Of a DNA stretch of 64,000 nt, positions 1,827-16,972 are shown piece by piece. The notes beneath the pieces are model-generated. The model was not told the DNA's origin. It made no database searches and worked only from the letters and a program-made list of their open reading frames with translations. Position numbers and translations under genes: made by a program. The first letter of the stretch is position 1, and every line of letters starts with the position of its first letter. Source of the DNA: a virus (Duplodnaviria; Heunggongvirae; Uroviricota; Caudoviricetes); the IMG/VR virus record IMGVR_UViG_2880389630_000005, one strand, 5' to 3'.

Positions 1827-2645
1827 ATGCGATTAACCAGTCGTTTTGGTTATGTAAACCAGATACGCCGTGACCGTCCGCTGACACACGAAGAACTGAT
1901 GCACCATGTACCGGGTATTTTCGGTGAAGACCGGCATACCTCCTGCAGTGAACGCTATACGTACATCCCCACCATCACCGTACTGGAAAGCCTGCAGCGG
2001 GAAGGCTTTCATCCATTCTTCGCCTGCCAGACCCGCGTACGTGACCCGGACCGCCGGGAATACACCAAACACATGCTGCGTCTGCGCCGTAACGGAGAGA
2101 TAAACGGAGAACATGTCCCTGAAATTATTCTGCTCAACTCTCATGACGGTACCTCCAGCTACCAGATGCTGCCGGGTTACTTCAGGTTCGTCTGCCAGAA
2201 CGGATGCGTCTGTGGTCAGTCTCTGGGGGAAGTGCGTGTTCCGCACCGGGGAAATGTGGTGGACAGAGTCATTGAAGGGGCTTACGAGGTGGTGGGCGTG
2301 TTTGACCGGATAGAGGAGAAGCGTGATGCCATGCAGTCGCTGATTCTGCCGCCACCGGCACGCCAGGCGCTGGCACAGGCGGCACTGACTTACCGTTATG
2401 GTGACGAACATCGGCCCGTCACCACCGCCGACATTCTGACGCCACGACGCCGGGAGGATTACGGTAAGGACCTGTGGAGTACTTATCAGACCATCCAGGA
2501 GAATATGCTGAAAGGCGGGATTTCCGGTCGCAGTGCAAAAGGAAAACGTATCCACACCCGTGCCATTCACAGCATCGACACCGATATTAAGCTCAACCGC
2601 GCATTGTGGGTAATGGCAGAAACGCTGCTGGAGAGCCTGCGCTGA
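1827..2645 (+). CDS. DUF932-family protein (YfjQ/YafZ-like) of CP4-type islands
   Basis: 272 aa; RBS aaggag upstream; resembles CP4 cryptic-prophage DUF932 proteins (from memory). Confidence 0.75.
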   Translation: MRLTSRFGYVNQIRRDRPLTHEELMHHVPGIFGEDRHTSCSERYTYIPTITVLESLQREGFHPFFACQTRVRDPDRREYTKHMLRLRRNGEINGEHVPEIILLNSHDGTSSYQMLPGYFRFVCQNGCVCGQSLGEVRVPHRGNVVDRVIEGAYEVVGVFDRIEEKRDAMQSLILPPPARQALAQAALTYRYGDEHRPVTTADILTPRRREDYGKDLWSTYQTIQENMLKGGISGRSAKGKRIHTRAIHSIDTDIKLNRALWVMAETLLESLR

Positions 2646-2890
2646 TGCAGCATGTCCCTGAAGGCGTGATTCAGGCACCAGAATCACCCGACGCCCCGGA
2701 GGCGCTGCCGGGGTGTCGTTCCATTTCTGATGATGACCTGTGCGCCTGGTGTACCCGTCTGCTTTACCGTCCCGGAGAAATCAGTCTGTGCAGACTGAGT
2801 ACAGGCAATGGCATCTGGCCATCCGTCTGTGACCGGAACGGTTACGCGTACGGCTGTCCGGAATTTCAGCCGAATATCATTCATCCCTGA
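2645..2890 (+). CDS. Small hypothetical protein, translationally coupled to DUF932 gene
   Basis: ATG overlaps upstream stop (TGATG); 81 aa; Cys-rich. Confidence 0.4.
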   Translation: MQHVPEGVIQAPESPDAPEALPGCRSISDDDLCAWCTRLLYRPGEISLCRLSTGNGIWPSVCDRNGYAYGCPEFQPNIIHP

Positions 2891-2983
2891 TATTACCGGG
2901 TCTCACGGTCAGTGATGAACGTGATGTTGCCAGCTCCCGACCTTTACTCCCTCTCATTTATTCACATTACAAGGATTTCATAC

Positions 2984-3457
2984 ATGAAAACATTGTCTCA
3001 GAACACCACCTCTTCGGCCTGTGCACCGGAGACTGGCCTGCAACAACTGGTTGCCACCATAGTCCCTGATGAACAGCGCATCAGCTTCTGGCCGCAGCAT
3101 TTTGGCCTCATTCCACAGTGGGTGACCCTGGAGCCCCGTGTCTTCGGCTGGATGGACCGTCTGTGCGAAAACTACTGCGGTGGTATCTGGAATCTGTACA
3201 CCCTGAACAACGGCGGGGCATTTATGGCCCCTGAACCGGATGACTATGATGACGAAACATGGGTACTGTTCAATGCCATGAACGGTAACCGCGCTGAAAT
3301 GAGCCCGGAAGCCGCCGGCATTGCCGCCTGTCTGATGACGTACAGTCATCACGCCTGCCGTACGGAGTGTTATGCCATGACGGTTCATTATTACCGTCTG
3401 CGGGATTACGCCCTGCAGCATCCGGAATGCAGCGCCATTATGCGCATTATTGACTGA
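2984..3457 (+). CDS. Antirestriction protein (YfjX/YafX-like)
   Basis: 157 aa from ATG 2984 (MKTLSQNTTSS...); position upstream of radC-like gene as in CP4 islands. Confidence 0.75.
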   Translation: MKTLSQNTTSSACAPETGLQQLVATIVPDEQRISFWPQHFGLIPQWVTLEPRVFGWMDRLCENYCGGIWNLYTLNNGGAFMAPEPDDYDDETWVLFNAMNGNRAEMSPEAAGIAACLMTYSHHACRTECYAMTVHYYRLRDYALQHPECSAIMRIID

Positions 3458-3472
3458 AAGGGGGCCGGAACA

Positions 3473-3949
3473 ATGCAACAGATTTCCTTTCTGCCCGGAG
3501 AAATGACAACCAGAGAGCGCAGCCTCATTCAGCGGGCCCTGAAAACCCTGGACCGCCATCTTCATGAACCCGGCGTGGCCTTCACCTCCACCCGTGCGGC
3601 ACGGGAATGGCTGATTCTGAACATGGCGGGACTGGAGCGTGAAGAATTCCGGGTGCTGTATCTGAATAACCAGAATCAGCTGATTGCCGGTGAAACCCTC
3701 TTCACCGGCACCATCAACCGCACGGAAGTCCATCCCCGGGAAGTGATTAAACGCGCCCTGTATCACAATGCCGCAGCCGTGGTGCTGGCGCACAATCACC
3801 CGTCCGGTGAAGTCACACCCAGTAAGGCAGACCGGCTTATCACCGAACGTCTGGTACAGGCACTGGGCCTGGTGGATATCCGGGTGCCGGACCATCTGAT
3901 AGTCGGTGGCAGCCAGGTTTTCTCCTTTGCCGAACATGGTCTGCTTTAA
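3473..3949 (+). CDS. yeeS: RadC-like JAB/MPN-domain protein (YeeS/YfjY family)
   Basis: 158 aa; JAMM motif HNHPSG; synteny with yeeT-cbeA-cbtA. Confidence 0.85.
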   Translation: MQQISFLPGEMTTRERSLIQRALKTLDRHLHEPGVAFTSTRAAREWLILNMAGLEREEFRVLYLNNQNQLIAGETLFTGTINRTEVHPREVIKRALYHNAAAVVLAHNHPSGEVTPSKADRLITERLVQALGLVDIRVPDHLIVGGSQVFSFAEHGLL

Positions 3950-4011
3950 CCCGTCACAACCACATCACACCTGTTTTCACTTTTATCTTCTGTCTTCAGA
4001 GGTATCCCACT

Positions 4012-4233
4012 ATGAAAATCATCACCCGTGGCGAAGCCATGCGTATTCACCGTCAGCATCCTGCATCCCGTCTTTTTCCGTTCTGTACCGGCAAATACCG
4101 CTGGCACGGCAGTGCTGAAGCGTATACCGGTCGTGAAGTGCAGGATATTCCCGGTGTGCTGGCCGTGTTTGCTGAACGCCGTAAGGACAGTTTTGGCCCG
4201 TATGTCCGGCTGATGAGCGTCACTCTGAACTGA
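4012..4233 (+). CDS. yeeT: DUF987 protein YeeT
   Basis: 73 aa MKIITRGEAMRIH...; matches YeeT family from memory. Confidence 0.8.
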   Translation: MKIITRGEAMRIHRQHPASRLFPFCTGKYRWHGSAEAYTGREVQDIPGVLAVFAERRKDSFGPYVRLMSVTLN

Positions 4234-4251
4234 GTCAGTAAGGGCATTCTG

Positions 4252-4329
4252 ATGAGCAGAATTATCACCACCACCGTGTATACACTGCATGAGCTATCCT
4301 CCACCGCACAGGAAAAAGCCCGCGACTGG
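4252..4329 (+). pseudogene. 5' fragment of an island gene (~205 aa when restored) disrupted by the Mu-like prophage
   Basis: ATG 4252 with RBS aaggg; frame continues exactly into 40148-40718 when the prophage and one repeat copy are removed. Confidence 0.7.
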
Positions 4330-4490
4330 TGTGGGGTAGTGATCAATTCTGGGCGGAGTTAGTGCAGCCTGGTAGAACCAGCAAGCCTTGTGTGGCGCGG
4401 GGTGTGGTGATTTAGTGTGATTCTGGGCGGATTTGTGAGAAATGACCAAAAACGCTTTTTTTGCGCTTTTTTCTGGGCGCTTTTGATCTG
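4330..4490 (+). repeat. Prophage left end with three direct copies of TTCTGGGCG (candidate transposase-binding sites)
   Basis: TTCTGGGCGG at 4347 and 4421, TTCTGGGCGC at 4471; same motif inverted at right end. Confidence 0.55.
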
Positions 4491-11898: not shown

Positions 11899-12178
11899 TA
11901 AAACGATAACGATAGATGTAGCCATGAATACAGGTCTGGCGCTTATCGGTTATGGCTATATCACTTTTATGTCATTCAGGTGGTTGATTTCTTCGATCTT
12001 TAAGCAGCGTGAAAAACGTCGTTGTAAAGACAAGCGCGCGAAGGCGCTAAATACGTTTAATGACGCTTTTGATATTGACCGTATGCAACAGGGCGACCCC
12101 GCACGTGTAATTACCCGGGGAGATATCGTGATTTTGGTATACCGGAGTGAAAAAAATGAGCAGGAGGCGGCGCAGTGA
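11888..12178 (+). CDS. Hypothetical small membrane protein
   Basis: 96 aa; hydrophobic segment LALIGYGYITFMSF; RBS ggagg. Confidence 0.45.
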   Translation: MVIDKTITIDVAMNTGLALIGYGYITFMSFRWLISSIFKQREKRRCKDKRAKALNTFNDAFDIDRMQQGDPARVITRGDIVILVYRSEKNEQEAAQ

Positions 12179-12483
12179 ACCAGCAAACCAGAATAAGCGA
12201 TAAGAGCCTGACCAGACTGATTGCCGATGCTGACAAAATGCTTGATATGCGCGGGCTGATTGTAGACAGAGAGTGGTGGACGCTTTTACGTCAGTCCCTG
12301 ACTGAACTTCAGGAGCGCCGCAAAAACAGCATTTCCGAATCTGGAATCCGTGCTGAAACCCTGAATGATTTAATCCGACATATTGACAGAAACGTGGATA
12401 TTGATGCGATGAAATCGCCGTTTGAACTGTCATCTGAAATTGTGGATTACGTTAATAAGCAACTGCACAAGGAGAATACGTAA
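12175..12483 (+). CDS. Hypothetical early protein
   Basis: 102 aa; GTG start with RBS aggagg. Confidence 0.45.
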   Translation: MNQQTRISDKSLTRLIADADKMLDMRGLIVDREWWTLLRQSLTELQERRKNSISESGIRAETLNDLIRHIDRNVDIDAMKSPFELSSEIVDYVNKQLHKENT

Positions 12484-12844
12484 TGCAGGTGGCATTTGTT
12501 GGCTTATTACCACATCCGATCCGTTTTTGGCTGTCATCGTCACTCATAAAGTCGCATGTTTTTACTGATGACAACGGCATCCCGCCCCCAAAGCGTCGTA
12601 CAGGTATTGCAGCTGCACGACGTGCAGCAAAGAAACGCAGGAGAGCAAAACGATGAAAAACCGTAAAGCAAGACTGCTGATAGCAAAACCCGGGCAGCTT
12701 ATCCGTATCTCAAATCGGCTTGTTGTTCGCTATAGATATCTTGGTTTTAGGGAGTGGTCCTCTATTCGTTTTTACGGTGTCTGGCGAAACAGAAGCGCAG
12801 CCCAAAACCGCTGGAAAAATCACGGTATGTAAAGGAGGTACCAA

Positions 12845-13255
12845 GTGAAGAAAATGATTTTTGTGGCGGCATTGCTAACCATTACCCAACATACGCAGGC
12901 TTCAGCAGTTATTGTGGCATCTACCGCTGCGACCACTGCTGCCGCAGCTGCAGCGAACTCTGCGAATATCGCAAACCAACAGGCACAGCGTGCTGCTAAT
13001 GCATCAGCCAGTGCTCTCCCGATTTCTGTTAAGGGCAGTAAGCAAAATCTGGGGTTCATAACGTGCGGTAAGCGTTCTTATGAAGCTGTAGGATCACTGG
13101 GATGTACGGTATATGGCGACAGTGAGAGCAGAGAAATTCCATGGAAAACGTGGCCCGGATACGTTCTTGGCTCGAAGCTCCCGGCCAGTTATGAGGTAAA
13201 CGCCGTGTCGTTTGATCACTATAACGACGTGGCAACTGTCTATTTCACATACTGA
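12845..13255 (+). CDS. Exported hypothetical protein (signal peptide), candidate moron
   Basis: 136 aa; RBS aaggagg; leader MKKMIFVAALLTITQHTQA; followed by hairpin at 13361-13386. Confidence 0.55.
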   Translation: MKKMIFVAALLTITQHTQASAVIVASTAATTAAAAAANSANIANQQAQRAANASASALPISVKGSKQNLGFITCGKRSYEAVGSLGCTVYGDSESREIPWKTWPGYVLGSKLPASYEVNAVSFDHYNDVATVYFTY

Positions 13256-13360
13256 GGCCCGGCATGAAATTTTCTGAATCACGGAGCAACAACACGATGA
13301 AAGCCATCACCGTAACTCGACGTTCCTGATTTCGCGAGTTGTTTAAACAGTAATCAAATG

Positions 13361-13386
13361 CAGACCAAAACATGTTTTTTGGTCTG
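13361..13386 (+). terminator. Hairpin CAGACCAAAA-loop-TTTTGGTCTG, terminator-like
   Basis: 10-bp perfect stem; T-rich 3' arm. Confidence 0.45.
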
Positions 13387-13409
13387 CCAAAAGTAGTGTT
13401 TTGGTCATT

Positions 13410-13688
13410 ATGAAGATTGAACAAATCGGAATGGCAGCCTTCCGGCAACAGGCTGAAAGCGGTGGCATGGATGAGTTCGTCGTGCAGCGGTTCGGTGGTG
13501 TGTATCACCTCTTCGCTGTGAATCGCCGCGCCGGGGTATCCTATTTTCTACAGGAACGCCGGGGCGATTACAAGACGTGGCTGTCTCTTGACCGTGCCGC
13601 CGCGTTCCTGTCAGGGATTGGCGTTTCACGTTTTACCGTGCGTTTTGAGGATAACAAACATGCTGAAAAAGATGATCGGGGCCATTAA
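13410..13688 (+). CDS. Hypothetical protein
   Basis: 92 aa from ATG 13410; overlaps start of GemA-like gene. Confidence 0.3.
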   Translation: MKIEQIGMAAFRQQAESGGMDEFVVQRFGGVYHLFAVNRRAGVSYFLQERRGDYKTWLSLDRAAAFLSGIGVSRFTVRFEDNKHAEKDDRGH

Positions 13689-14058
13689 AGCTGGTCAGGC
13701 GTATCTGGGGTGGGATGATGCCCTTTATCGCCAGACGCTGGCCCGCCTGACCGGTAAAACCAGCACCACACGCTGCAATCTCGATGAACTGCGCATCATC
13801 CGGGAATACATGCACGAACAGGGATTCCCGCGCAAGGCACCCACCGGTAAAGGTCGCCGCCCTCGTGTTGCAATGAGCAGAAAATCAGTATTATCCAAAA
13901 TTGAAGCGTTGCTGGCTGATGCAGGTCGTTCCTGGGCGTATGCAGAAGGACTGGCATCTCACATGTATAAGCAACATGTGATCGAATGGCTGACGGATGA
14001 ACAGCTTTTTGGAGTGATGGTGGCGCTGGTTAAAGATTCAAGAAGGAGAAATCAATGA
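13660..14058 (+). CDS. GemA-like protein (Mu gp16 family)
   Basis: 132 aa from ATG 13660 with RBS gagga; position just upstream of mor-like gene. Confidence 0.65.
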   Translation: MLKKMIGAIKAGQAYLGWDDALYRQTLARLTGKTSTTRCNLDELRIIREYMHEQGFPRKAPTGKGRRPRVAMSRKSVLSKIEALLADAGRSWAYAEGLASHMYKQHVIEWLTDEQLFGVMVALVKDSRRRNQ

Positions 14059-14531
14059 TGAAAAAATGGTTGTTTTGTTTAGTAGGGGTTATTTTCTCTT
14101 GTTCTGTGCTGGCACAGACAGAGGAACAGGCGCAAAAGGAACTGAAACGTTATCAGGATATGAAGCCATTGGCTGAACAGATGCTTCGGGAAAGTGGAAA
14201 ACTTTATTACGCTATGCCAGAAGCTGCATCGCAGTATCAGCAGGGAAATATTGAAGAGTGGAAGAATATCAAAAAAGGACTAAAACAACTGGATGAACAG
14301 GCCAGTAAACTGGGGGACGACCCGCTTGATCCTGTGTATGGTTCCTGCATAAAAATGAAAAACCAGCTACAGGATTACTGGTCTAACGTTATCAGGGATG
14401 ACAGGCAGTTTCTGGAACGTTCAAGAAATCAGTTTAAAGAATATCGTATGGATTGTTTTGATTCGTTTGTTTTTGGTAAAGAGCAAATAGAATCAAGAAA
14501 AGGCCTGGTTATTCTAGACCTGACTAAATAA
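14055..14531 (+). CDS. Exported hypothetical protein (signal peptide), candidate moron
   Basis: 158 aa; leader MMKKWLFCLVGVIFSCSVLA; strong terminator immediately downstream. Confidence 0.55.
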   Translation: MMKKWLFCLVGVIFSCSVLAQTEEQAQKELKRYQDMKPLAEQMLRESGKLYYAMPEAASQYQQGNIEEWKNIKKGLKQLDEQASKLGDDPLDPVYGSCIKMKNQLQDYWSNVIRDDRQFLERSRNQFKEYRMDCFDSFVFGKEQIESRKGLVILDLTK

Positions 14532-14543
14532 GACTTAGTTTAG

Positions 14544-14568
14544 CCCCTGCCATGCAGGGGATTTTTTT
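14544..14568 (+). terminator. Rho-independent terminator
   Basis: Stem CCCCTGC/GCAGGGG followed by TTTTTTT. Confidence 0.8.
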
Positions 14569-14631
14569 GTGGTCTGTACAGGCGATCATGTATGGCTATA
14601 ATAACAGTAAGTTACTACCGGAGACGCCATC

Positions 14632-15099
14632 ATGCAGACCTTCAGTGAAACAGATCTTCGCGATGCGCAGGCACTGCTGCCCGATTCCGTGCAGCAACTG
14701 ATTAGCGTGATTGGCTTCCCCGCCCTGACCCGGTTAATCCGTTCTTTTGGTGGTGTGACGTTAAGCGGTAAAACCGGCGCACACGCCGAACGCACCGGCG
14801 GTGTCCATGCCCTGTTACATGACGTGCTGACCGAAGACGAAATCAACAAACTGATCCGCTTTCTTGGCGGTGCACCGTTTTACATTCCCCGTTGTGATCA
14901 TGCTTTACGTGCCCTGCGTAACACCCGTTTTATGGCTGATTTACAGCAGCATGTAAAAGGCGGATGCTCACACCGACAGGCGCTGGCACTGCTCTGTCCC
15001 CGTTACGGCATTTCAGACCGGTACGCATGGCAACTGATACACCGACGACAAAAACAGACTTCGCTGAAAAGCCCCACCCAGGTGGGGCTTTTTGATTAA
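14632..15099 (+). CDS. Mor/C-family transcription activator (middle operon regulator-like)
   Basis: 155 aa; FYIPRCD and C-terminal RYGIS...AWQLIHRR resemble Mu Mor (from memory). Confidence 0.65.
   Translation: MQTFSETDLRDAQALLPDSVQQLISVIGFPALTRLIRSFGGVTLSGKTGAHAERTGGVHALLHDVLTEDEINKLIRFLGGAPFYIPRCDHALRALRNTRFMADLQQHVKGGCSHRQALALLCPRYGISDRYAWQLIHRRQKQTSLKSPTQVGLFD
15071..15093 (+). terminator. Rho-independent terminator overlapping the mor-like stop
   Basis: Stem GCCCCACC/GGTGGGGC followed by TTTTT. Confidence 0.65.
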
Positions 15100-15124: not shown

Positions 15125-15403
15125 ATGACCAACTATACGGCACTTGGCGAGTATACGGCCTACTCAGAGCAGGCACGGGATGCTGCCGGACGCCGCTTCG
15201 CTTATATGAAAAACCTGGCCAACCAACTAAACCGAATGGCCGAACAACCGGATATGGTTGTTCAGGAAGAAGCGTTACAGTGTGCCATTGCTGACATCAT
15301 CGCCAGCGAAAACGAGATGCGCGCAGCGATGGAAAAGGCGAACGCCTCTGCTCCGCTTTGTAATAAACCTCTTATTACGCCGGATTCTCTTTCCCGCTTC
15401 TGA
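15125..15403 (+). CDS. Hypothetical protein
   Basis: 92 aa from ATG 15125; RBS aaaaaggaga. Confidence 0.4.
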   Translation: MTNYTALGEYTAYSEQARDAAGRRFAYMKNLANQLNRMAEQPDMVVQEEALQCAIADIIASENEMRAAMEKANASAPLCNKPLITPDSLSRF

Positions 15404-16264: not shown

Positions 16265-16793
16265 AATTTTTGATGAAGTCCTGGGCAAAGAAGGCGGTTA
16301 TGTCAATCACCCGGATGATAAGGGCGGTCCGACCAAATGGGGCATTACGGAAAAAGTCGCCCGCGCCCACGGATACCGTGGCGATATGCGCGATTTAACC
16401 CGCGAACAGGCGCTGGACATCCTTGAAGCCGATTACTGGTATGGCCCGCGATTTGACCAGATCGCCGCATTATCCCCTGATATTGCCGCAGAGCTGTGTG
16501 ATACCGGTGTGAATATGGGGCCAACCGTGGCGTCCAGAATGCTTCAGCGCTGGCTGAATGTGTTCAATCTGCGCGGCAGGCTGTACCCGGATATGGACGC
16601 AGACGGACGCATCGGGCCTCGTACCATCAGTGCATTGCGCGCCTTCCTGAATAATCGCGGTCAGGACGGTGAACGGGTGATGCTGACGGCCCTGAACTGT
16701 ACGCAGGGGGACCGCTATCTGGAACTGGCGGAGAAACGCGAGGCTAATGAATCGTTTGTTTATGGCTGGCTGAAGGAGCGCGTGGCGATATGA
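16248..16793 (+). CDS. Endolysin, GH108-type muramidase with peptidoglycan-binding domain
   Basis: 181 aa; GGYVNHPDDKGGPTKWGIT N-terminus typical of GH108/PG_binding_3 proteins. Confidence 0.85.
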   Translation: MKSKDKIFDEVLGKEGGYVNHPDDKGGPTKWGITEKVARAHGYRGDMRDLTREQALDILEADYWYGPRFDQIAALSPDIAAELCDTGVNMGPTVASRMLQRWLNVFNLRGRLYPDMDADGRIGPRTISALRAFLNNRGQDGERVMLTALNCTQGDRYLELAEKREANESFVYGWLKERVAI

Positions 16794-16972
16794 CGCGTCA
16801 GCACTGGACCCACAGAACGCCACGTAAAGCCGCGCGCTGTGTTCTGGCCCTGTTTCTGGTGATGTTGCTTCCGGTGGGATGCACAGACATTAACAGAACG
16901 GGACAGCTGTTAGACGCGGCGGCGCAGGTCTGCCGGATTATTGACGGCATCCGGCAGTGTTCACAGAACTGA
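16790..16972 (+). CDS. Putative lipoprotein (possible spanin component)
   Basis: 60 aa; hydrophobic leader ending LLPVGC; start overlaps endolysin stop. Confidence 0.4.
   Translation: MTRQHWTHRTPRKAARCVLALFLVMLLPVGCTDINRTGQLLDAAAQVCRIIDGIRQCSQN

Follow-up and report, generated by a model that had tools for sequence, protein, structure and literature searches.

Introduction

Superinfection-exclusion and envelope-modifying functions often come from exported accessory proteins of phages, most of which are uncharacterised. Morons, in the sense of Hendrix and colleagues (e.g., bor and lom of lambda, and those of HK97 and HK022), come with a promoter and a terminator of their own and are expressed while the prophage is repressed. 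T4 Imm and Sp and T5 Llp are early exported proteins of virulent phages that serve exclusion. Temperate phages also possess accessory hot-spots, such as the defence hot-spots of P2/P4-like elements and the anti-CRISPR locus of the Mu-like phages of Pseudomonas. Here, we describe two genes for predicted exported proteins, the open reading frames (ORFs) ORF1 and ORF2, located within positions 12,845 to 14,568 of the virus record IMGVR_UViG_2880389630_000005. This 64,000-nucleotide stretch of DNA (the window) is, judging from sequence comparison, a piece of E. coli chromosome with a Mu-like transposable prophage. An earlier note on this DNA had described the two genes as exported-protein cassettes with their own terminators, typical of morons that act in the lysogen. 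Both ORFs were found exactly where the note had placed them, and the PGAP annotation of E. coli strain S13 includes both.

12845..13255, + strand: ORF1, predicted exported cargo protein of 136 amino acids, PHROG 8805; ORF and PGAP coding sequence (hypothetical protein, strain S13)
14055..14531, + strand: ORF2, predicted exported cargo protein of 158 amino acids, modelled as a four-helix bundle; ORF and PGAP coding sequence (hypothetical protein, strain S13)

ORF1 and ORF2 are cargo genes in phage accessory hot-spots, an already known kind of arrangement. The likeness lies in a fixed site between core genes that holds alternative, unrelated cargo or nothing, swapped via conserved flanks. The differences are that here all three cargo families carry signal peptides, that one recombination joint lies within the signal-peptide codons, and that no cargo matches a PADLOC defence model. 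The two genes resemble morons in being extra genes found in some but not other close relatives, in having exported or envelope-located products and, for ORF2, in an atypical base composition; they differ from them in lacking a detected promoter, in being coupled to the early operon, and in that the hairpin and the terminator next to them are backbone elements. The exclusion proteins Imm and Sp of T4 and Llp of T5 are small early envelope proteins, which matches the timing and location proposed below and the presence of ORF1 relatives in virulent phages. However, the database searches revealed no sequence or profile similarity of ORF1 or ORF2 to them, and T5 Llp is a lipoprotein while ORF2 is not. 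The four-helix sensor domains of chemoreceptors and histidine kinases differ from ORF2 in that the latter would be soluble and free, with neither a transmembrane nor a signalling module attached. On balance, we favour describing the locus as a whole as accessory exported cargo in two recombination-prone slots of a Mu-like early operon, a description that we hold to be probable rather than secure.

Exchange of cargo between gemA and mor

Positions 12600-14800 of the window are 100% identical to the chromosomes of the E. coli strains S13, R4, and CFS3292, and the annotation of S13 shows a Mu-like transposable prophage adjoining yeiG. Starting at the repressor end, this prophage encodes the repressor, a Ner-like helix-turn-helix protein, a Mu-type transposase, a MuB-like AAA ATPase, and many small early genes, followed by gp16/GemA, Mor, two holins, a GH108 endolysin, terminase, portal, and head and tail-sheath genes. 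Because of this gene order and of the flanking genes that match Pfam GemA and Mor, ORF1 and ORF2 were placed at the end of the early operon.

13660..14058, + strand: gemA (Mu gp16 family), Pfam GemA E 2.5e-18; left flank of the ORF2 slot
14632..15099, + strand: mor (Mor/C-family late activator), Pfam Mor E 1e-6, phrog_836 E 1.2e-42; right flank of the ORF2 slot

Complete E. coli genomes were queried with the joined gemA and mor flanks, and the 57 carriers of the lineage were classed by the span of the region. A single locus was retrieved per class for the spans of 977, 1298, and 1548 nt, and allele 2 of ORF2 was identified by DNA match. The resulting counts, given below, are of genomes, several of them clonal, and not of independent events. 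A slash marks the end of the signal peptide.

Span 1440 nt: ORF2 allele 1, 11 of 57 genomes
Span 1437 nt: ORF2 allele 2, 76-77% DNA identity, 11 of 57 genomes
Span 1298 nt: predicted exported protein of 112 amino acids, begins MKKLLLLILTLCFTGISHA/SD, 11 of 57 genomes
Span 1548 nt: predicted exported protein of 174 amino acids, begins VKSKIINSIIIGSLLLSTPVFA/DW, 5 of 57 genomes
Span 977 nt: empty slot, 19 of 57 genomes

Cargo other than ORF2 occupies the slot in 16 of the 57 genomes, and a 167-amino-acid relative of the 174-amino-acid protein fills it in other assemblies. The three cargo families are unrelated to one another, and all have signal peptides. The slot seems to accept only exported proteins, which is a modestly unusual feature of an arrangement that is otherwise ordinary for mosaic phage genomes. 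In a chimera found in an IMG/VR contig (L035, UViG_2737471844_000002, positions 2501-3004), residues 1-13 of ORF2 (MMKKWLFCLVGVI) are joined to the unrelated 167-amino-acid cargo, which places one recombination joint within the signal-peptide codons.

The DNA of the prophage was compared with that of three relatives. Identity is mostly 92-100% (lowest 85%) in gemA and mor and 52-87% across ORF2, and the island of divergence coincides exactly with ORF2 and the adjoining hairpin. At the protein level, ORF2 is 62-82% identical, compared with 94-99% for GemA and Mor. The G+C content (GC) of ORF2 is 0.40 versus 0.52 for gemA and 0.54 for mor, and the same contrast was found in all four prophages compared. 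The ratio of nonsynonymous to synonymous divergence (dN/dS) in ORF2 is 0.10-0.16, with a dS of 1.0-2.5, the flanks having 0.11-0.40. That positive selection caused the divergence was rejected from these dN/dS values and from a dS that is 4-10 times that of the flanks. The combination of a high dS with a low dN/dS points to old alleles that were moved by recombination. ORF2 is under purifying selection and is a functional gene whose long-separated alleles are shuttled between near-identical backbones. Together with the distribution of ORF1 described below, the data support the view that both genes are non-core, horizontally exchanged cargo encoding putative exported proteins.

The ORF2 family

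The ATG start of ORF2 is preceded by a strong Shine-Dalgarno sequence, AGAAGGAGA. The family is small. A word-indexed search found homologues in 10 clusters, the named ones from E. coli, E. albertii, Salmonella, and Yersinia, and when 1.84 billion representatives were searched exhaustively with a profile, no more than 11 clusters reached E <= 0.001. Alignment of the family (A7) showed four invariant residues, G64, C98, W109, and C134. The AlphaFold2 model of the mature protein (138 amino acids) consists of four helices with a pLDDT of 89.5, and ORF2 models as a periplasmic four-helix bundle. Nothing was found for ORF2 in searches of BFVD, Pfam, PHROGs, NCBIfam, PADLOC, or PDB sequences, and a 4HB_MCP-type sensor domain was supported neither by a profile match nor by an attached transmembrane signalling module.

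No stretch of alignment A7 was conserved enough to retrieve loci, and the E. coli collection and look-ups of exact proteins were used instead; a scan for Mor in contigs that represent one genome per species found no relative. Wherever the context could be recovered, the gene of the ORF2 family adjoins Mor in a Mu-like prophage, contig L016 being too short to show its neighbours. The gene lies either between GemA and Mor or directly after Mor, before the lysis genes. An unannotated member was found after Mor in the Klebsiella phage ST405-OXA48phi1.1. The related phages VW-6B and Kp4852-3 have neither an ORF2-type gene nor a terminator between gemA and mor, which overlap or abut.

The ORF1 family and its slot

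ORF1 starts with GTG, preceded by the strong Shine-Dalgarno sequence AAAGGAGGT. The mature part of the protein has an Ala/Thr-rich segment followed by a C-terminal domain of about 70 amino acids with the invariant residues Cys74 and Cys87. ORF1 matches phrog_8805 (E 9.9e-82), an entry that has no assigned function, and no Pfam domain was found in members of the family. Homologues are more numerous than those of ORF2, with 56 clusters in a single-sequence search and 117 in a profile search, and all those that are named come from enterobacteria or their phages. The GC of ORF1, 0.50, compares with 0.45-0.53 in the neighbouring genes.

Many, not all, members of the Mu-like lineage carry ORF1, which is absent from the E2348/69 and Yersinia relatives. 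Its region is mosaic and also contains ead/Ea22-like genes and other small membrane or exported proteins. Homologues are also found in a lambdoid prophage, in the region after replication gene P, on plasmids of about 96 kb among phage-like-looking genes, and in the virulent Vequintavirinae phage Av-05 (70% identity). The C-terminal domain alone, behind another signal peptide, occurs in the phages of about 45 kb KW1E_UTAR and Klebsiella KLB16/KLB22. In annotated prophages and plasmids, the homologue belongs to a string of small genes, and its start overlaps or closely trails the gene before it. Av-05 and its relatives have a comparable string, in which a gap of 65 nt precedes the homologue. The homologues in a virulent Vequintavirinae phage show that the ORF1 family is used in lytic growth.

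Between ORF1 and a conserved hairpin lies a short region with no intact gene.

13256..13359, no strand assigned: non-coding remnant after ORF1 (alignment A6 and sequence comparison)
13297-13329: stub of ten codons, MKAITVTRRS and a stop, matching the start of longer genes in the relatives L006 and L007

These 104 nt are a deletion scar; relatives hold one or two extra small cargo genes at this location. The stub marks the deletion of further cargo between ORF1 and the hairpin. In one relative (L018, 4404-4727), the variable region after ORF1 contains a gene for 107 amino acids on the opposite strand. The slot after ORF1 can therefore also take cargo in the reverse orientation, which would need its own promoter.

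Hairpin, terminator, and mor promoter

The earlier note had each gene followed by a hairpin or strong terminator of its own. The stem after ORF1 and the terminator after ORF2 are both real, but the former has no U-tract on the + strand and lies 105 nt past the ORF1 stop codon, and neither belongs to the gene that precedes it.

13360..13387, no strand assigned: hairpin/palindrome GCAGACCAAAA-N6-TTTTGGTCTGC, 11-bp stem, 22 nt before the gene at 13410-13688
14544..14568, + strand: intrinsic terminator CCCCTGC-CAT-GCAGGGG followed by seven T residues, 7-bp stem with 6 G-C pairs
14575..14602, + strand: sigma-70-like promoter TGTACA-16-TATAAT before mor, 10 of 12 positions, best match in 8 kb

The terminator was listed first among the terminator-like sites in a scan of 8 kb, which found 15 such sites compared with 9.1 +/- 2.8 in shuffled sequence, and its folding energy is -17.1 kcal/mol (z -2.6). 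A hairpin followed by a run of T residues is found after the gemA-mor slot in every prophage aligned and behind each type of cargo. Relatives carry compensatory variants of the stem (L005, L006, L024, and L012), among them CCTCCGC..GCGGAGG. Strain C5 has nothing between gemA and mor, yet it keeps the same terminator and promoter, and for this reason the terminator is attributed to the backbone and not to ORF2. Its conservation marks it as the backbone terminator that closes the early operon upstream of mor.

The hairpin at 13360-13387 has a folding energy of -19.5 kcal/mol (z -4.2), and 0 of 200 shuffles were as good. Its arms are invariant in five prophages, including those of E2348/69 and the Yersinia relative, which lack ORF1, and it is always located just before the gene upstream of gemA. 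Since it is conserved where ORF1 is missing, we regard it as a landmark of the backbone rather than as an ORF1 terminator, and it marks the fixed right boundary of the ORF1 cargo slot. Two other identities were considered and rejected: a repeated regulatory motif, the hairpin being unique in the window, and a known RNA family, the best Rfam match scoring 21.9 bits against a gathering score of 55.8.

The 3′ arm of this hairpin (13363-13406 region) has an alternative pairing partner at 13387-13406, immediately ahead of the ATG at 13410, for which no obvious Shine-Dalgarno site was seen. The alternative pairing could regulate the translation of the gene upstream of gemA.

Both hexamers of the mor promoter are invariant in the relatives compared, and the rest of the approximately 70 nt up to the mor ribosome-binding site is nearly so. 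With a terminator and a promoter-like site before it, mor looks like its own transcription unit. The gene model of this group of prophages is corrected in that these two sites are regulatory elements of the backbone and not parts of a cassette. The promoter-like site in front of this late activator is close to the consensus. A second G+C hairpin, with five T residues, at 15067-15097 overlaps the mor stop codon.

Operon embedding

The ATG of ORF2 overlaps the TGA stop codon of gemA (ATGA), and this overlap is kept in relatives, even where the ORF2 homologue is only 27% identical. ORF1 is the last in a chain of abutting ORFs (12175-12483, 12483-12656, and 12653-12832), from which it is separated by 12 nt.

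12483..12832, + strand: two small linking ORFs, 12483-12656 (unannotated) and 12653-12832, with overlapping stop and start codons

The ORF at 12483-12656 has 57 codons and an AAGGAG ribosome-binding site, and its start and stop overlap both neighbouring ORFs; it is probably a missed gene. Part of its 3′ region (approximately 12603-12684) is about 90% identical to DNA in Stx-converting phages and in phiV10.

A consensus scan of 8 kb found no sigma-70-like site (at least 9 of 12 positions) before ORF1 or ORF2. The simplest reading, which we infer from this arrangement, is that both genes are co-transcribed from the early promoter and hence expressed after infection or induction. Neither of them is a self-contained cassette.

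Export signals

The classic signal peptides that the earlier note had seen at both starts were recognised here by inspection and conservation. The criteria were a basic n-region, a hydrophobic stretch (h-region) 10-16 residues long, and a small residue at both -3 and -1.

12845..12901, + strand: ORF1 signal peptide MKKMIFVAALLTITQHTQA, predicted cleavage after TQA (hydropathy and layout)
14055..14114, + strand: ORF2 signal peptide MMKKWLFCLVGVIFSCSVLA, predicted cleavage after VLA (hydropathy and conservation)

By hydropathy and inspection, the N-termini MKKMIFVAALLTITQHTQA/SAV of ORF1 and MMKKWLFCLVGVIFSCSVLA/QTEE of ORF2 both follow the n/h/c layout, and positions -3 and -1 are taken by small residues, the successive regions being MKK, MIFVAALLTIT, and QHTQA/S in ORF1, and MMKK, WLFCLVGVIFSCS, and VLA/Q in ORF2. 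The layout is kept in homologues that have otherwise diverged to 16-30% identity. It was found in 18 of 18 members of the ORF2 family (down to 16% identity) and in every member of the ORF1 family examined. The homologue of ORF1 in KW1E_UTAR, about 39% identical, has an analogous yet different signal peptide, VKKIVIALSLALLTSTAANA. From this conservation, both signal peptides are assigned to the signal-peptidase-I type. The motif IFSC had raised the possibility that ORF2 is a lipoprotein, which was rejected: in P0003 and P0005, Phe stands in place of Cys16, and distant members lack any residue corresponding to it. A lipobox cysteine at +1 was also looked for in ORF1, and its signal peptide contains no cysteine. 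In both families, two cysteines of the mature part are invariant: C74 and C87 for ORF1, C98 and C134 for ORF2. These pairs fit an oxidising periplasmic location.

Discussion

The comparisons show the reality of both genes, their export signals, the polymorphism of the slots, the backbone ownership of the hairpins, and purifying selection. What the proteins may do is proposed as follows. ORF1 and ORF2 would occupy two recombination-prone slots of the early (transposition/replication) operon and would be read from the phage early promoter, ORF2 being the last cistron before the backbone terminator. Expression would occur mainly after infection or induction, alongside the early lytic genes. The products would leave the cytoplasm through Sec, lose their signal peptides to signal peptidase I, and become oxidised in the periplasm, giving disulfide-stabilised soluble proteins that would probably act by binding an envelope or periplasmic component of the infected cell. 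Binding is preferred to catalysis because there are no conserved catalytic-looking residues among the invariant positions (G, C, W, and C in ORF2). The most plausible role would be to block entry or damage by further phages during lytic development. The cargo would be swapped by homologous recombination, with the 3′ end of gemA and the signal-peptide codons as the left arm and the terminator T-tract and the mor promoter as the right arm.

The variety of unrelated exported proteins that the slot tolerates suggests a role in competition, one in which diversity is favoured. Nonetheless, an exclusion or defence-type function is put forward only tentatively, and superinfection exclusion, as the earlier note had it, is a possible form of it. 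Equally speculative is the wider proposal that the gemA-mor slot is dedicated to exported proteins and that its three or more families, together with ORF1, are new classes of early-lytic envelope exclusion or counter-defence proteins. The ORF1 family (PHROG 8805), the four-helix family of ORF2, the 112-amino-acid family, and the 167/174-amino-acid family are in any case candidate periplasmic effectors. Several points weigh against the proposed mechanism. Searches of Pfam, the PHROG function categories, NCBIfam, PADLOC (E < 0.01), and PDB gave no match to a known exclusion or defence family. The AlphaFold2 model of ORF1 has a pLDDT of 51 and is unusable. The promoter scan was crude, and weak or non-sigma-70 promoters could escape it, which leaves room for some expression in the lysogen. 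A receptor-specific block by ORF1 is unlikely because the phages with homologues fall into at least four unrelated types, whose receptors probably differ. Apart from these points, the literature search found no paper mentioning WP_000976762 and nothing relevant on exclusion or morons in Mu-like prophages.

The moron reading of the earlier note holds that the genes are independently transcribed from the repressed prophage and protect or modify the lysogen. It has in its favour the polymorphism in presence and absence, the low GC of ORF2, the export of the products, and the strong terminator after ORF2, and the part of it that has the genes as extra, exported cargo was supported. The terminator and the hairpin, however, remain where the cargo is missing, no promoter-like site precedes either gene, and their start codons overlap or abut upstream genes, so the cassettes have no terminators of their own and form no autonomous unit. 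In addition, ORF1 has relatives in virulent phages, which have no lysogenic state. We consider classical morons unlikely, and ORF1 and ORF2 are probably not lysogen-specific; the action in the lysogen that the note had assumed found no support in the missing promoter-like sites, the coupling to the early operon, or the homologues of ORF1 in a virulent phage. The note had also named homology to a virion component as evidence that would speak against its reading. None was found when it was looked for, and a virion-component reading was itself rejected, since neither product showed homology to structural proteins and both genes are part of the early operon.

Other functions can be imagined for the same proteins. 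ORF2 could be a periplasmic factor of lysis timing that acts on holins or endolysin in the manner of the T4 antiholin RI. The order Mor-X-endolysin or Mor-X-holin in L010, L014, L015, and L017 is in agreement with this idea, as are the constant vicinity of the family to Mor, its location directly before the lysis genes in distant relatives, and a product that is predicted to be a helical periplasmic protein. Yet the same holin, WP_001372993.1, accompanies ORF2 allele 1, the 112-amino-acid cargo, and the empty slot alike, for which reason a lysis-timing role is disfavoured. Moreover, prophages with 100% identical first holins have ORF2 proteins of 62% identity, and the lysis cassette looks complete without ORF2; we give this explanation a low probability. 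No higher is that of host-directed factors, which would alter how the bacterium behaves rather than competition between phages; they might, for example, be colonisation factors, or periplasmic decoys or modulators that target sensor kinases or chemoreceptors. Although structures of sensor domains were matched, the sequence identity to them is 2-12% (most 6-7%), talin and designed bundles score equally, there is no Pfam sensor-domain match, and the predicted lytic-phase expression suits a role that benefits the host poorly. Least probable by far, and strongly disfavoured, is that one or both ORFs are non-functional leftovers or mis-called frames. The lack of a known domain and frameshifted or truncated copies such as P0010 and P0063 could be read in this way, but ORF2 shows purifying selection despite saturated synonymous divergence as well as a confident fold, invariant residues are found family-wide, the ribosome-binding sites are strong, and ORF1 is retained in four unrelated phage types.

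Neighbouring genes

Beside yeiG and adjoining the repressor end of the prophage, positions 3347-4330 of the window (L001 5748-6731) hold a pseudogene of a TonB-dependent receptor that lacks its N-terminus. From the gene order of K-12, this is probably cirA, interrupted by Mu-like transposition; if so, the insertion removed a receptor for colicin and phage. At 16790-16972, an ORF of 60 amino acids overlaps the end of the endolysin gene and has a lipobox-like LLPVGC motif, which makes it a candidate spanin component. Directly after mor, a second island of divergence was found at 15125-15403. The gene that it contains is 43% identical in the Salmonella and Yersinia relatives, in which mor is 94-96% identical, and this island may be a third exchangeable slot.

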